DNA of 16,523 bases, taken from IMG/VR virus record IMGVR_UViG_2802429251_000002; one strand, given 5' to 3'. The DNA comes from a virus. Taxonomy: Duplodnaviria; Heunggongvirae; Uroviricota; Caudoviricetes. The position numbers and the translations under genes are program-made. The notes beneath the pieces are model-generated. The model saw only the letters and a list, made by a program, of their open reading frames with translations, was not told the DNA's origin and made no database searches. Below, piece by piece: positions 6,897 to 15,103 of the stretch; position 1 is the stretch's first letter, and each line of letters starts with the position of its first letter.

Positions 6897-7697
6897 TTAA
6901 CCGCGCTTCGCCTTCTGCGTCGCGGTGGTTTTTCGTGTTGCAGGCTTCCGCGTTGTCTTTTTACTTTTGCTGCTTTCGTCCTGCGCCTGCGGTGTGCTGG
7001 CGTCTTCTGGTGCGGCTGCGGAATCGGCTTTTTTCAGGGCGCGGGAAAGGGTTGCAATCTCGCGTTTCACACCTGCGTTCGGGTTCAGGTGCATTGCTTC
7101 GCGCAGCAGCTTCAGTGACAGGGCCATGCTGTCCGCATCACTCAGGCCACGGCGGACAAAGGCGCACGCTTTGCATAATTTGGCGCGCACTTCGTCCGGC
7201 ATATCCTGGTTGGCGACAATTTCCCAAAGTGTGTCCAGTGGTTCGATAAAGGCGGACAAATCCGCGTCGGCATCCGTCCCGGCCTGCGTCAGTACCGGAT
7301 TACAGATTTCTTCGGTCAGTACCGTGGCAGCAGTACGGCCAAAGTTATCCGGCATGATGAGGTTGTGACGGACCACATACGCGCCGATACGCAGCGCAAG
7401 CGGAAGATCGCCACAGTCAATCGCCCACACCATCAGCGTGGCAATCACTTCATCCTGCTGCCCGCCGTCAGCCTCCAGCGTTCCCTCAATCCAGCCGGAA
7501 AAATCCGGCAACAACTCTTTTTTGATGGCGGCTTTCGCGCTTCTGGCCTGTACGCCCTTAAGCCGGGCCTGTGCCAGACGCAGACGATACAGCACCTCTT
7601 CATGCGCGGTACGCGCGGCGTGGTCCACGCCTTCATTCGCCCGGCCTGCGCGCTGTGCCATCACGTTCTGCCAGTGTTGCTGTGCAGGAGTAATCAT
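6897..7697 (-). CDS. M: Terminase endonuclease (small) subunit M-like
   Basis: 266-aa ORF (P2 gpM 247 aa) immediately downstream of the capsid gene; GGAGAG ribosome-binding site before ATG 7697; basic Ala/Lys-rich C-terminus. Confidence 0.8.
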   Translation of the reverse strand: MITPAQQHWQNVMAQRAGRANEGVDHAARTAHEEVLYRLRLAQARLKGVQARSAKAAIKKELLPDFSGWIEGTLEADGGQQDEVIATLMVWAIDCGDLPLALRIGAYVVRHNLIMPDNFGRTAATVLTEEICNPVLTQAGTDADADLSAFIEPLDTLWEIVANQDMPDEVRAKLCKACAFVRRGLSDADSMALSLKLLREAMHLNPNAGVKREIATLSRALKKADSAAAPEDASTPQAQDESSKSKKTTRKPATRKTTATQKAKRG

Positions 7698-9809: not shown

Positions 9810-11561
9810 ATGATTCAGGACGCTTTTGTGCGCCAGCGTGCGCGGCAACTTTACTGGCAGGGTTATCCGCCCGCAGAAATATCACGTCTGATGGGAATAA
9901 ACCCGAACACGATTTATGCGTGGAAAAAACGTGACCAGTGGGATGAAACGCCACCCGTGCAGCGTGTCACGCAGTCCATCGATGCGCGCCTCATCCAGCT
10001 TACTGAAAAACAGAATAAAACAGGTGGTGACTTTAAGGAAATAGACCTGCTGACCCGGCAGCTTAAAAAACTGCATGATGGCCAGCCGGATGCGACGGTC
10101 ACAGGAAAGAAAGGCCGGGCGAAAAAACTCAAAAATCATTTCACGCCGGAACAGATTGCCGCACTGCGGGAAAAAATCATCAGCAGGCTGGAGTGGCATC
10201 AGCGGGGCTGGTTTGACTCCCTGACCCTTTGCAGGGAAGCCGGGATACGTAACAGGATGATCCTGAAATCCCGACAGATTGGGGCGACCTGGTATTTTGC
10301 ACAGGAAGCGCTGCTGATGGCGCTGCGTGACGATGTGGCGCAACCTTACCAGCGTAACCAGATTTTTTTGTCTGCGTCGCGTCGTCAGGCGTTCCAGTTT
10401 AAAAGCATTATTCAGAAGGCCGCGGCTGAAGTTGATGTGGAGCTGAAAGGGGGCGATAAAATCATCCTCTCCAACGGCGCAGAGCTGCATTTTCTCGGCA
10501 CTTCTGCTGCGTCGGCACAGTCCTATACGGGCAATTTTTATTTTGATGAATTTTTCTGGGTCAGTCGCTTTGCTGAACTGCGCAAGGTGGCTGGCGCTAT
10601 GGCAACCCTCAGCGGACTGCGGCGCACCTACTTCTCCACGCCATCCACCGAAACGCACGAGGCATACGCCTACTGGAACGGCGACCGCTGGAACGAGAAA
10701 AAGGCCTCGCATAAACGCCAGCGTTTTTCTGTGGACTGGAAAACGCTGCATAACGGGCTTATCTGCCCTGACCGGACGTGGCGGCAAATTGTCACGCTGG
10801 AAGATGTGGTTAATCACGGCTGGAAACACACCGATATCGACGAAATTCGTGATGAAAACACCGAAGACGAGTTCCTCAATCTCTATATGTGTGAGTTTGT
10901 CCGCGAAGGGGAATCGGCATTTAACCTGAATATCCTGATTGGCTGCGGCGTTGACGGATACGACGACTGGAAAGACTGGAAACCTTTTGCTCCCCGCCCG
11001 ATGGGGAATCGTCCGGTATGGATTGGGTATGACGCAAACGGCAGCAGTGGCAACGGCGACAGCGGCGCTGTGTCCGTGGTGGTTCCTCCGTCTGTTCCTG
11101 GTGGCCGTTTTCGAACGGTGGAGACGCGACGCGTTCAGGGGCTGGAGTTTGAAGAACAGGCCAGAGTCATTGAAGAGTTCACGTGTCGCTACAACGTGGA
11201 ACACATCGGCATTGATGTGACGGGCGGGAACGGGGAGGCTGTTTATCAGATAGTGAAACGGTTTTTCCCTGCCGCTATTCCGTACACCTTCACGCTGTCA
11301 TCAAAACGGTCGCTGGTACTGAAAATGCTGCAAATAATGCGTGCCGGGCGGTGGGAATACGATCGCGCCGAACGCGAGCTGGTCGCGGCCTTTAACGCCG
11401 TGCGTAAGGTGAAAACACCGGGCGGCTTTATCACTTACGAAACGGACCGAGCGAGGGGGATCAGCCACGGCGACCTTGCGTGGGCAACCATGCTTGCTGT
11501 CATTAACGAACCGATTGGCGGCGAAGGAGAAAACGAGCGTTTCACGGTTATGGAGTTCTGA
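9810..11561 (+). CDS. P: Terminase ATPase (large) subunit P-like
   Basis: 583-aa ORF (P2 gpP 590 aa); Walker-A-like KSRQIGAT motif; N-terminus MIQDAFVRQRARQLYWQGY...; stop overlaps the Q start (TGATG). Confidence 0.9.
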   Translation: MIQDAFVRQRARQLYWQGYPPAEISRLMGINPNTIYAWKKRDQWDETPPVQRVTQSIDARLIQLTEKQNKTGGDFKEIDLLTRQLKKLHDGQPDATVTGKKGRAKKLKNHFTPEQIAALREKIISRLEWHQRGWFDSLTLCREAGIRNRMILKSRQIGATWYFAQEALLMALRDDVAQPYQRNQIFLSASRRQAFQFKSIIQKAAAEVDVELKGGDKIILSNGAELHFLGTSAASAQSYTGNFYFDEFFWVSRFAELRKVAGAMATLSGLRRTYFSTPSTETHEAYAYWNGDRWNEKKASHKRQRFSVDWKTLHNGLICPDRTWRQIVTLEDVVNHGWKHTDIDEIRDENTEDEFLNLYMCEFVREGESAFNLNILIGCGVDGYDDWKDWKPFAPRPMGNRPVWIGYDANGSSGNGDSGAVSVVVPPSVPGGRFRTVETRRVQGLEFEEQARVIEEFTCRYNVEHIGIDVTGGNGEAVYQIVKRFFPAAIPYTFTLSSKRSLVLKMLQIMRAGRWEYDRAERELVAAFNAVRKVKTPGGFITYETDRARGISHGDLAWATMLAVINEPIGGEGENERFTVMEF

Positions 11562-12607
11562 TGAGCAGAAAAAATAAAAAAGTGCGCATGAGTTCACGCA
11601 TTGATCTCGCTGATGCGCTCAGGAAAGAATCATCGCTCAGTGCATTCACATTTGATGGTCCTTATCGCCTGACCGGGCATGACCTGCTGGACAATATGTA
11701 CTGTGCTGATAACGGGCGGTGGTATGAAACCCCGGTGGACTGGTACGGTCTGGCAAGAGCTGCCCGGCAAACGTCCTGGCATCAGTCTGCGCTTTACTTT
11801 AAGCGCAATGTATTGCTCGGTTGCTACATCCCGCACCCGCTGCTTTCCCGGCAGGATTTCTCGGCGCTGGCGCTGGACTGGTTTGTGTTCGGTAACGCAT
11901 TCCTTGAGCTTCGAAGCAATATGCTCGGCGAACCGCTTAAATTACGGCACGCCCTGGCGAAATACATGCGACGCGGAAGCGATCTTGAATCATGGTGGTA
12001 TGTGCAGGATGGCAAGGACGCGTTCCAGTTTCGCCCTGGCAAAGTGTGCCACCTGATGAATCCGGATATTAACCAGGAAATCTACGGCATGCCGGAATAT
12101 CTTGGCGCATTACTCTCGGCCAGCCTGTCTCATTCGGCGGACATGTTCAGAAAACTGTATTACGACAACGGATCCCACGCCGGGTGCATCATCTACATCG
12201 GTGCAGCGCAGGTAAACCGCGAAAGCATGGACTCCCTGAAAGAAACGCTACAGGGGGCACGTGGTGGTGGTGCGTTTAAAAACGTGCTCATTCATGCGCC
12301 CAACGGGGGCAAAGAGGGGGTGCAAATTTTGCCGTTCCAGCAGATCACCGCAAAGGATGAGTTCATGAATGTTAAGGCGGCATCCCGTGATGATGTGCTG
12401 GCTGCGCACCGCGTTCCGCCGCAACTGATGGGGGCAATGCCGGGCGAAAAAAGTGCGTTTGGTGATGTGGAGAAGGCCGCGCGGGTTTACGCAATTAACG
12501 AGCTGATGCCCGTCATGGAGGCCATGAAGCACATCAATGACTGGCTTGGCGAAGAGGTGATCCGCTTTAACTCTTACGCACTGTTAGACACCCAGCCCAC
12601 ATCCTGA
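11561..12607 (+). CDS. Q: Portal vertex protein Q-like
   Basis: 348-aa ORF (P2 gpQ 344 aa) downstream of and overlapping P; adjacent to the non-coding region where cos is expected, as in P2. Confidence 0.9.
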   Translation: MSRKNKKVRMSSRIDLADALRKESSLSAFTFDGPYRLTGHDLLDNMYCADNGRWYETPVDWYGLARAARQTSWHQSALYFKRNVLLGCYIPHPLLSRQDFSALALDWFVFGNAFLELRSNMLGEPLKLRHALAKYMRRGSDLESWWYVQDGKDAFQFRPGKVCHLMNPDINQEIYGMPEYLGALLSASLSHSADMFRKLYYDNGSHAGCIIYIGAAQVNRESMDSLKETLQGARGGGAFKNVLIHAPNGGKEGVQILPFQQITAKDEFMNVKAASRDDVLAAHRVPPQLMGAMPGEKSAFGDVEKAARVYAINELMPVMEAMKHINDWLGEEVIRFNSYALLDTQPTS

Positions 12608-13097
12608 CGCGCTTCGCTTGTCTGCTGCTTCGCCGGGGCATAAAAAATTTATGCCCCGACTCTCCAGCTCCTGTATCAATCAGATAATTTCACGACGCTT
12701 TCCTGCTGATTGCCATCATCGACAGTCAGACTCTTACGCAATCCCACCGCGTTGACTGCATGTTCTCGCCGTCTCAGTGCGATTTTGACGGCCTTACCTT
12801 TCACCCCATCAAATCAAAAGCTCTCACGTCTTTTTCATGCTCAGCGTGAGAAATATGGCCATTCTGTTGTATCTCTGCGACATCGTTCAGGGAATGCTAT
12901 TTACCCCCTGAAACGCGGGCTGTTCCCCCGTCACCTGCGCGCAGAAAAAGCGCGTTTTTTTGTGCACGCACGGATCCTTGACGGATCCAGCCGCCATGCG
13001 GGCCGGAAGGGTAAAAAGTCGTTCAAAAAAATTGTGCAAATTTGTGCACTATTGTGCAGAAGGGCGATGCGCGATTATCGCCCTGGTTTGAGGGGGA
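12608..13097. other. Non-coding region expected to contain cos (cohesive end / packaging site)
   Basis: In P2 the cohesive end lies just beyond the 3' end of Q; here 490 bp without a convincing ORF separate the convergent Q and Ea22-like genes. Contains a perfect 10-bp-stem hairpin (12634-12656), helically phased TTGTGCA repeats and a C-rich segment (12921-12939) loosely resembling the reverse complement of the P2 cos 19-mer as I recall it. Exact cos position not determined. Confidence 0.35.
12936..12961 (+). terminator. Candidate intrinsic terminator for the P-Q transcript
   Basis: ctGCGCGCagaaaaaGCGCG followed by seven T (12955-12961); the stem is short (5-6 bp). Confidence 0.4.
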
Positions 13098-13688
13098 TCA
13101 GGTGTTATTTTTATCTGTCGTCAGTGAGCTAAACCATCCACGATTTACATCGCAGGACTGATGCGTTCTGTCCTCGTGTTTCTCCTGCCACAATGCTTTT
13201 CCGCCAGCCTTTATGATGGCTCTTTCAACATCCCGCTCGTATCGCAAGGGCTGAAATACGTCATTAATGAAATATTCGCTTATGTCCGGAAGCGATACTG
13301 CAAAATTATTTGTTTGTTGCGCCGTCCTGCTATGCAGCAAAGCGGCATGCTTTAATGCGTCCTGTGCTTTCTGGAATTTAAGTGCATAGTCAGTGGCGAT
13401 TTTTTCCAGTTCAGCGATTCGGTTGTCTTTGGTTTCCAGCCAATCAAGTAGCGCCAATACTTCAGGATCCCCGACATCCAACACTGTTACGCGTGATTTT
13501 TCATAATGTTCGTCAGCAAGAGTTCGGCCAATTTTGAAATCTCCATCATCACCATAACCGGAGCAGGCATAAACAACCTGTGCTCCAGATATTCGCTGAA
13601 TTGACATTTCCTCGCCGCAAATAGGGCATTTCGGTACTGGCACAGGTGAATAACGTTCACGTAATGCCTGATAGTTGATTTCGCTCAT
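13098..13688 (-). CDS. Ead/Ea22-like protein with N-terminal CxxC zinc-ribbon-like segment
   Basis: 196-aa ORF with AGGAG 9 nt upstream of ATG 13688. The stretches INYQALRE and VLALLDWLETKDNRIAELEK resemble the Ead/Ea22-like family of enterobacterial prophages (recalled, not searched); N-terminus has CPICGEEM...YACSGYGDDGDF. By eye slightly lower GC (about 47%) than the structural genes. Confidence 0.5.
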   Translation of the reverse strand: MSEINYQALRERYSPVPVPKCPICGEEMSIQRISGAQVVYACSGYGDDGDFKIGRTLADEHYEKSRVTVLDVGDPEVLALLDWLETKDNRIAELEKIATDYALKFQKAQDALKHAALLHSRTAQQTNNFAVSLPDISEYFINDVFQPLRYERDVERAIIKAGGKALWQEKHEDRTHQSCDVNRGWFSSLTTDKNNT

Positions 13689-13751
13689 TAAGTCGTTCTC
13701 CTTGTTTATGTTCTGAGGTGGAGAGCAGGGCGAACTCGCCCTGATGTTGTG

Positions 13752-14063
13752 TTATTCAGGAAATAACGCCCGGATATTTCCGGCCATCTGACTGGTTATC
13801 TGTGCGGTTGATACTGGCTGTGATGCGGGGCGTTCTGTCCTGGTTTGTGTCACTGATAATGCTTCATCACCAGCCCATGCAGCCAGTCGATAAGCCTCTG
13901 CCGGATTCATTTTCAGAAGTGCCAGCCCGGCCAGAAAAGCCACGCGTTGGCCGCTTTTGCGGGCTTCTGGTGTAAGGCTGTCCAGCCAGGCGCATGCTTC
14001 TCCTTCGTTCTTGACGGCGGTGGGCTTCAGATAGAAACTTATCCGTCTGGTTGGAGTCGTCAT
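13752..14063 (-). CDS. parR: ParR-like centromere-binding partition protein
   Basis: Internal ATG at 14063 (within track ORF 13752..14198) preceded by GGAG, 5 nt downstream of the parM stop; 103 aa. N-terminus RRISFYLKPTAVKNEGEACAWLDSLTPEARKSGQRVAFLAGLALL and the IRALFPE motif resemble plasmid R1 ParR as I recall it; gene order parM-parR. Confidence 0.7.
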   Translation of the reverse strand: MTTPTRRISFYLKPTAVKNEGEACAWLDSLTPEARKSGQRVAFLAGLALLKMNPAEAYRLAAWAGDEALSVTQTRTERPASQPVSTAQITSQMAGNIRALFPE

Positions 14064-14067
14064 TGGT

Positions 14068-15027
14068 TTACTCCTTGTCCATTGCGTACAGCCCATTAAC
14101 CAGAGCAAACTGTGGCACCCCGTCCGCGATGAAAGTCGCATTAACTCCGCAGGCTTCGCGGATAGCGGGTGCCACAATCTCCGCCCCTCCACCGACAACC
14201 ATCACCCGCCCGTAACCCGAAAAACCCGCCAGCGCGCGGATCACGCGTTGTTTCAGTGTTTCTTCCTTTTCACGAATTACCGCCATCAGGCTGGCGTAAT
14301 GCGCGTCATTGTGGATGTGCTGGCGCAGCCAGGCTTCATCATGGCGATGTTCGATAATGGTATTGGCGATGTGGTGACTGGTGCGCATACCGTTAGTGGC
14401 CATCACCGACAGTACGGCATCGGCCATCAGAGAAACGCCCACGTGTGGATCGCAAAACACCTGGCTGATACCTGCCAGTTGCCCCTGAACCTTTGCCACA
14501 TCCAGCGTGGTTCCGCCCAAATCCACAATCAGCAGGGATTCAAACGGACTCATGTCAGCCAGTGCCTTAAAGCCAGCCGGAATGGATTCAGGCATAACCC
14601 GTACGTTACGGATAGTGAATGCTTCGCCGTTCTGGTACTCCACCGGGCGCATGACGTTCGCTTTTTTGCGGTTGATGTTGGCCATGTCCGGCTGTGCGTT
14701 TGTATCGAAATACTCGCTCAGTGGCAGGGTGACAACCACATCCACTTCCTGTGGTGTGATGCCTGATTTGACCAGCGCGTGATGAATGGCAATTATATTC
14801 ACATCGCTGTACTGGTATTGCGTGTCGGTCGTCTGGACAAAGCGATCGCTGACCGGATCAAAACCATAGCGCACGCCATCAAGCATGTAGTTCGCGGGCT
14901 GCGTGCCACCGAACGGCGCAGACCATTCCGACTTGAAGCTGTTCGGGCTGATGGCGTTGCGGCGTTCGCCGTTCTCAGTCCATGCCAGCTTGATGTTGGT
15001 GGAGCCGTCGTCGATACAAATTTTCAT
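14068..15027 (-). CDS. parM: ParM/StbA-like actin-type segregation ATPase
   Basis: 319-aa ORF starting MKICIDDGSTNIKLAW; motifs YSDVN, VMPESIPAG, IDLGGTTLD, VVGGGAE and LVNG are collinear with plasmid R1 ParM (recalled); AAGGA ribosome-binding site before ATG 15027. Confidence 0.9.
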   Translation of the reverse strand: MKICIDDGSTNIKLAWTENGERRNAISPNSFKSEWSAPFGGTQPANYMLDGVRYGFDPVSDRFVQTTDTQYQYSDVNIIAIHHALVKSGITPQEVDVVVTLPLSEYFDTNAQPDMANINRKKANVMRPVEYQNGEAFTIRNVRVMPESIPAGFKALADMSPFESLLIVDLGGTTLDVAKVQGQLAGISQVFCDPHVGVSLMADAVLSVMATNGMRTSHHIANTIIEHRHDEAWLRQHIHNDAHYASLMAVIREKEETLKQRVIRALAGFSGYGRVMVVGGGAEIVAPAIREACGVNATFIADGVPQFALVNGLYAMDKE

Positions 15028-15103
15028 GTCGCTTTTCCTTATGTTGATTAATTAATCGGTTACAGGATTTTTAAATCCCGCTTTTGCCTGTTTTGTGCGC
15101 GCT

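Follow-up and report, generated by a model that had tools for sequence, protein, structure and literature searches.

Gene organization of the prophage and its cos-adjacent region

The window, which here means the whole 16,523-nt stretch of DNA analysed, corresponds to a P88-like prophage (Xuanwuvirus, P2 family). Its gene order, with gpP, gpQ, the repeat element, cargo, ParMR and a replication gene in succession, is the one annotated in phage P88 (Table 1). The cos region is located downstream of the portal gene gpQ, as in P2, and the annotations of both P2 and 186 place cos next to Q or W. The cargo gene adjoining cos in the window is Ead/Ea22-like; P88, Chuche and other relatives have other genes at this position.

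Beyond the cargo gene, and although the prophage is a P2-like one of the integrative kind, there is a type II plasmid-partition pair (13752-15027, minus strand). Within the phage collection, ParM is distributed over P88-like phages and the plasmid-prophage D6 (47% identity). The sequence upstream of parM (15028-15103) contains no iteron-type centromere, only the palindrome GGATTTAAAAATCC.

Two mechanically called ORFs overlap the repeat region (12710-13132 on the plus strand and 12887-13039 on the minus strand). The overlapping 140-aa ORF has no Pfam match, and conservation among relatives is confined to short islands between freely varying sequence, from which we regard the repeat region as non-coding in practice. 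This agrees with the statement in the first-pass annotation that no coding feature explains the repeats. The Rfam 15 covariance models gave no match at E ≤ 1 in 12550-13150 on either strand.

Table 1. Genes and sequence features of the terminase, cos and cargo regions in the window.
Feature	Position	Strand	Basis or remark
gpM-type terminase small subunit	6897-7697	-	Pfam PF05944, E 1e-36
gpP-type terminase large subunit	9810-11561	+	Pfam PF03237, PF17289, PF06056 (E 1.8e-26), HTH_23 (E 4.2e-7)
gpP N-terminal helix-turn-helix domain, residues 6-63	9825-9998	+	PF06056; HTH_23, E 4.2e-7; candidate binder
gpQ portal gene	11561-12607	+	Pfam PF04860
Non-coding stretch with cos-like core and repeats	12608-13097		Between gpQ and the cargo gene
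Predicted 19-nt cohesive-end sequence GGGCTGTTCCCCCGTCACC (reverse complement GGTGACGGGGGAACAGCCC)	12917-12935		Homology to P2
GC hairpin GCGCGC-AGAAAAA-GCGCGT followed by T-run	12937-12961	+	Between the predicted nick and the proximal pentamer
Proximal TTGTGCA (pentamer GTGCA 12962-12966)	12960-12966	+	Equivalent of the AATGCA closing the 55-bp P2/P4 core
Spacer, variable in sequence, conserved in length	12967-13031		Ends in an A-tract, 13024-13031
ACGGATCC, two copies with 11-bp period	12970-12988	+	Inside the spacer; one GATC per copy
Distal array, three TTGTGCA at exactly 10-bp spacing	13032-13058	+	Conservation, shuffles
Start of the variable cargo region	13059-13097		Similarity of relatives stops right after repeat 3
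Ead/Ea22-like cargo gene adjoining cos	13098-13688	-	PF13935, E 2e-32
StbB/ParR-like protein	13752-14198	-	PF10784
ParM/StbA	14068-15027	-	PF06406, E 3.7e-82

The predicted cos core and its right arm

All cos nick positions in the window are homology-based predictions. The sequence GGTGACGGGGGAACAGCCC is identical to the P2 cohesive end GGCGAGGCGGGGAAAGCAC at 13 of 19 positions (compared by eye), and the predicted nick could be 1-2 nt off. This predicted cohesive end lies within a conserved, GC-rich cos-like core (approximately 12914-12945; 1.50 bits per column). Both its similarity to the P2 end and its position in the conserved core place the neighbouring repeats near cos, and their earlier description as cos-proximal was therefore appropriate. 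The Chuche record lacks 7 nt (CTGTTCC) within the predicted 19-nt cohesive end (window 12920-12926), a gap that may reflect either misassembly at cos or genuine variation.

The GC hairpin that follows has a predicted folding energy of -12.2 kcal/mol (z -1.08). Its T-run is invariant in 44 aligned representatives, whereas the hairpin is not retained in every lineage; P2, P4 and 186 have a hairpin and TTTT at the equivalent place. The T-run and proximal pentamer together (TTTTTTTGTGCA, 12955-12966) are located 26 nt from the predicted nick. In P2, P4 and 186, GGTTTTAATGCA is found 24 nt from the nick and forms the right edge of the 55-bp P2/P4 core.

The first-pass annotation had reported three TTGTGCA copies at an exact 10-bp spacing and a fourth at 12960, and all four were located on the plus strand (12960-12966, 13032-13038, 13042-13048 and 13052-13058); its reading of the first copy, TTGTGCAC, is present as stated. 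The raw number of TTGTGCA in the whole window is unremarkable, with seven occurrences against 4.0 expected. The distal copies are the only 7-mer triple in the window at 9-12 bp spacing, and no such triple appeared in any of 500 dinucleotide-preserving shuffles of the window. The proximal site itself is a doublet, the window having GTGCACGCAC at 12962-12971. Beyond the third distal repeat, the start of the cargo region contains a GC hairpin downstream of the Ead/Ea22-like gene (-12.9 kcal/mol, z -2.1).

A second repeat, ACGGATCC, had been described as a pair with an 11-bp period at 12972-12990. The two copies and their period stand, and the coordinates were wrong by two, the copies lying at 12970-12977 and 12981-12988; a third match is found at 12168 inside the portal gene. 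Three matches compare with 0.56 expected in the window, and three of 200 shuffles reach this number. Only the P88 clade has the pair, and its two copies (0.70 and 0.85 bits) are about as variable as the spacer around them (0.73). It is absent from phiT5282H and other GTGCA-type lineages, and related lineages have CCGATCC...CAGACC in its place. The first-pass annotation had put it on a par with TTGTGCA, to which it is not equivalent; ACGGATCC is a spacer feature of one clade and lies outside the conserved signal.

Conservation and geometry among P88-like relatives

For comparative analysis, 80 loci were gathered via portal homology, and an alignment was built from 44 non-redundant cos regions, the most distant of which have portal proteins 57% identical. 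The T-run with the proximal GTGCA carries 1.72 bits per column and the cos core 1.50, whereas the spacer carries 0.73 and the sequence after the third repeat (past 13059) only 0.17. The first-pass annotation would have counted a lack of conservation in close relatives against its reading; in the same alignment the three distal repeats reach 1.81, 1.65 and 1.43 bits per column, and nothing else between the genes is conserved as strongly as the repeats. The proximal GTGCA is invariant in the 44 representatives. Since the same site had served as the alignment anchor, the analysis was repeated with the distal repeats as the anchor. Of 65 distinct sequences, 57 then had the proximal pentamer at exactly 72 bp upstream, and the rest had it at 70-73 bp. 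GTGCA is retained in the first, second and third distal repeats of 62, 54 and 40 of these 65 sequences, respectively, and the third repeat is weakly conserved.

In BLAST searches, 16 P88-like phage records cover at least 80% of the intergenic query, and similarity mostly stops at query positions 451-452 (window 13058-13059), the last base of the third repeat. The corresponding region of Enterobacter phage phiT5282H is 75% identical, with the block TCAAAAAAATTGTGCAAATTTGTGCACTATyGTGCA almost unchanged. A degenerate pattern of the whole layout matched 55 expected sites and none elsewhere in 1.9 Mb. When viral contigs were scanned, the full GTGCA layout was found, among the matches listed, only beside portal genes. 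Fourteen portal-less matches, also among those listed, were considered as satellite cos sites of the GTGCA type and were rejected, as they do not have the layout and look like chance occurrences. The element is common, the same 161 nt being present in 1110 of 5426 complete E. coli genomes.

The spacer was also inspected for a conserved inverted repeat. RNAalifold predicted none, though one is visible in 186, P4 and some lineages. A named 7-bp spacer helix pairs in 58.9% of cells compared with 55.1% in shuffles, and 33 of 500 shuffles are as good.

The same layout in P2, 186, P4 and other Peduoviridae

The comparison with the P2 and 186 cos regions that the first-pass annotation had proposed revealed the same layout, with ATGCA as the pentamer. 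The right ends of P2, 186 and P4 share the order cos, hairpin, TTTT, AATGCA, spacer and ATGCA repeats, with successive distances of 72/10/12 bp in P2 and 72/10/13 bp in 186 and P4. The values are 72/10/12 in Yersinia YpM_50 and 73/10/13 in Erwinia ENT90, and Burkholderia KL3 has GTGCA-71-GTGCG-10-ATGCG-10-ATGCG. Across the family, the distal array starts about 72 bp (70-74) from the first pentamer and has a spacing of about 10 bp.

It has been reported that cos is the only region common to P2 and P4 (Rousset et al., PMC9122126). As the P2 terminase packages P4, the features common to both provide the best available proxy for what terminase needs. Of the 75 usable P4-like loci (Psu-bearing), 74 carry ATGCA-72-ATGCA-10-ATGCA, and the spacers of P2 and P4 are unrelated in sequence. 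P2-type prophages with portal proteins 99% identical to that of P2 yielded 50 variants of the right arm, no two of which have spacers sharing 80% identity or more. A pentamer NTGCR occurs at 71-73 bp in 44 of the 50, and in 30 of those 44 it is followed by ATGCA after another 10 bp; RTGCR has a background of 0.3 hits per offset. Six of the 50 have no recognisable pentamer at 70-74 bp. The retention of 71-73 bp across unrelated spacers indicates that the spacer sequence is free, and that its length and the pentamers are constrained.

These P2-type prophages diverge completely right after the proximal AATGCA, yet every variant has a spacer of its own, about 67 bp long, with ATGCA repeats after it, so that cargo cassettes seem to travel with their own distal array. 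Approximately 42 of the 50 variants have a proximal doublet in the form of the inverted repeat ATGCAg(t/g)TGCAT, at offset +6/7 from the proximal pentamer. The first position of the pentamer is not strict, since some P2-type arms have GTGCA or GTGCG and KL3 mixes GTGCA, GTGCG and ATGCG. In P2, at 33452-33460, the third ATGCA overlaps the -35 hexamer TTGAAT of the old-tin promoter, which was deduced from the annotated transcript starts at 33424 and 33426. From this overlap we infer that in P2 the packaging signal and a cargo promoter use the same bases.

Seven other Peduoviridae (Klebsiella ST11-OXA245phi3.1, E. coli 813R9, SopEPhi, an Arsenophonus plasmid-prophage, Ralstonia YO139_2, K139 and Pseudomonas phi3) showed no such layout in the 1.2 kb that follow the portal gene. 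Several have a gene beginning 60 nt or less after the portal stop codon, so that cos must lie elsewhere there, and the cos of the seven is probably at another place.

Three papers that cite Ziermann and Calendar 1990 (PMC5694545, PMC2231350 and PMC9594776) describe the P2/P4 cos as a 55-bp core. Aligning P2 with the P4-like loci showed that this core ends exactly at the proximal AATGCA, which places the distal array outside it. The distal array is not mentioned in these three papers, and full-text searches for the repeats in the literature consulted retrieved nothing relevant. Located at a fixed 72 bp and outside the core, it is the one part of the element that may have been under-described.

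Terminase subunits as candidate readers of the pentamers

Of the two terminase subunits, gpP has the only recognisable helix-turn-helix domain, the putative recognition helix of which is not the same in GTGCA-type and ATGCA-type phages. The AlphaFold2 model of gpM (pLDDT 81.9) comprises a helical-repeat domain and a disordered basic C-terminal tail. This subunit is a candidate binder as well. No classical DNA-binding domain was recognised in the gpM model, and its fold showed no similarity to gpNu1 or other solved small terminases, the best PDB match being to TPR proteins (E 0.018). The gpM N-terminus and the gpP helix-turn-helix both differ between the pentamer groups, which are also separate clades.

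P88-like phages have GTGCA in each of their four pentamer copies, and P2, 186 and P4, which infect the same host species, E. coli, have ATGCA; this difference favours a phage-encoded reader. Such a reader is plausible on these comparisons. Because the first pentamer position is not strictly kept, co-evolution of reader and site is suggestive and not proven.

A probable packaging signal and alternative explanations

Based on sequence comparison, the TTGTGCA repeats probably represent the cos right arm of this P88-like, P2-family prophage, where they would be bound by terminase and act in a manner similar to lambda cosB. Terminase recognition near cos was among the functions put forward in the first-pass annotation, and it gains comparative support from the fixed distance to a P2-type cos core, from the highest conservation in the intergenic region and from the presence of the layout in P2, 186 and P4. 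Several copies of a phage-encoded terminase DNA-binding module (gpM and gpP) would bind the pentamers, and those at 72, 82 and 92 bp from the proximal copy would be presented on roughly one face of the helix. Binding would bend or loop the intervening DNA, and the resulting complex would set the gpP nuclease on the 19-bp cos sequence, starting packaging. If 55 bp are enough for packaging, the distal array would be accessory and not essential.

Partition is the function that the gene content of the prophage brings to mind. Type II partition centromeres, such as parC of plasmid R1, are arrays of short helically phased direct repeats, and here the repeats would serve as a parC-like centromere, bound by the StbB/ParR-like protein (13752-14198, minus strand), which together with ParM (14068-15027, minus strand) would partition the phage genome. 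About 700 bp separate the partition pair from the repeats, the sequence upstream of parM shows no iterons, and ACGGATCC, with its 11-bp period, tends to be found where ParM is encoded (20 loci with both, 37 with neither, five with the pair only and one with ParM only). However, the TTGTGCA layout is present in the ParM-less phages phiT5282H and 500465-2 and in at least 24 loci that lack a ParM gene within 6 kb, and its ATGCA version occurs in P2, 186 and P4, for which the phage collection gave no ParM match at E ≤ 1e-5. The association between ACGGATCC and ParM is confounded by clade and broken in six loci, and two copies are far below the number in known centromeres. A centromere role for TTGTGCA is accordingly scarcely credible, and the distribution of the repeats comes close to refuting it. 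The first-pass annotation had also mentioned a host-factor site. Binding of IHF, Fis, CRP or a similar nucleoid or regulatory protein that bends DNA at cos would fit the A/T tracts flanking the proximal and distal pentamers, and lambda cosB does contain an IHF site. Against it, the GTGCA and ATGCA difference is consistent between lineages of the same host species, with different pentamers among phages of E. coli; there is no IHF consensus WATCAANNNNTTR in 12900-13100 with one mismatch allowed; and TGTGCA is not a full CRP half-site pair. We therefore regard a host protein as a highly improbable reader.

Transcriptional functions were weighed in the same way. Cargo and early genes are transcribed towards cos, and a terminator scan flagged GTGCACAAATTTGCAC followed by T7 on the minus strand from 13049 to 13034, which would make the distal repeats and A-tract a minus-strand intrinsic terminator or insulator shielding cos from early and cargo transcripts. 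It is very unlikely that this is their role: repeats 1 and 2 pair into a weak hairpin (5 bp, -6.3 kcal/mol, z -0.74; matched or surpassed by 44 of 200 shuffles), the equivalent repeats of P2, 186 and P4 are not followed by a T-run, the cargo cassettes bring stronger hairpins of their own, and the third repeat, the proximal copy and the fixed 72 bp would all be left unexplained. An operator or promoter element for the adjacent cargo genes, another function suggested at first, would be in line with the overlap between the third ATGCA and the -35 hexamer of the old promoter in P2. In the window, though, the adjacent gene (13098-13688, minus strand) is transcribed towards the repeats, no sigma-70-like promoter was detected in 12500-13800, and among relatives the repeats persist unchanged while the cargo varies in gene content and orientation, leaving little probability for cargo regulation.

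Within the packaging-signal interpretation, a more elaborate arrangement can be proposed, although we consider it unlikely. The P2-family cos would be bipartite, consisting of the 55-bp core and an array 72 bp away, with the pentamers read by the N-terminal helix-turn-helix of gpP and not by the small subunit. The four to five pentamers, counted as the proximal site (a doublet in P2-type phages) and the three distal copies, would then template a large-subunit oligomer on looped DNA. A corollary, were this true, is that the turnover of cassettes at the hotspot would be coupled to packaging specificity, since in P2-type phages each cassette appears to bring a spacer and a distal array with it.

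The conserved array has several practical implications. Cosmids with longer flanks are reported to transduce better, with no explanation offered (PMC9594776), and a conserved array at a fixed 72 bp would explain this. It would also show how short an efficient packaging signal can be made in P2/P4-based transducing particles, and the GTGCA and ATGCA variants would predict which helper phages pair with which satellites or cosmids for packaging. Since the array marks the cos-side border of the cargo/defence hotspot to the base, it provides a handy anchor for delimiting cassettes.

Comparison with known packaging and partition systems

The resemblance to type II parC lies in helix-phased direct repeats near a parM/parR-like gene pair. 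The differences are that the TTGTGCA layout occurs in phages without ParM and that its 3 + 1 copies are not upstream of parM. In the pac sites of SPP1 and P1, short helix-phased boxes at a distance from the cut organise the terminase-DNA complex. The window shares the short phased boxes, and the P1 boxes contain GATC, as does each copy of ACGGATCC. Packaging in SPP1 and P1, however, is of the headful pac type, and the boxes flank the cut on either side, whereas the pentamers in the window are all on one side of cos.

Lambda cosB, located beside cosN, contains the sites R3-I1-R2-R1 for the small terminase subunit gpNu1. Like cosB, the window arm has several short repeats on one side of the nick over roughly 120 bp, with a presumed role in holding terminase and in DNA bending, which we consider a functional analogy and not family membership. 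The two have no sequence similarity, the window repeats being 5-7 bp compared with about 16 bp in lambda, and the window arm has no IHF consensus. The modelled gpM is predicted to consist of a helical-repeat domain and a basic tail, without a winged-helix domain. A further difference is that phages of the P2 family package circular monomers (PMC2231350).

The closest counterparts are the cos regions of P2, 186 and P4. In all of them cos is located downstream of the portal gene, with a cohesive end that the predicted one of the window resembles (13 of 19 positions in the comparison with P2), a hairpin or T-run with a pentamer 24-26 nt from the nick, and a second pentamer group that starts 72 bp further on with a spacing of about 10 bp. 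The window differs in having GTGCA (extended to TTGTGCA) in place of ATGCA, distal spacings of 10 and 10 bp in place of 10 and 12-13 bp, six deviating positions in the 19-mer and an A-tract preceding the distal array. As a phage packaging signal the element is an ordinary though neatly delimited one, a P2-family cos with a lineage-specific pentamer.
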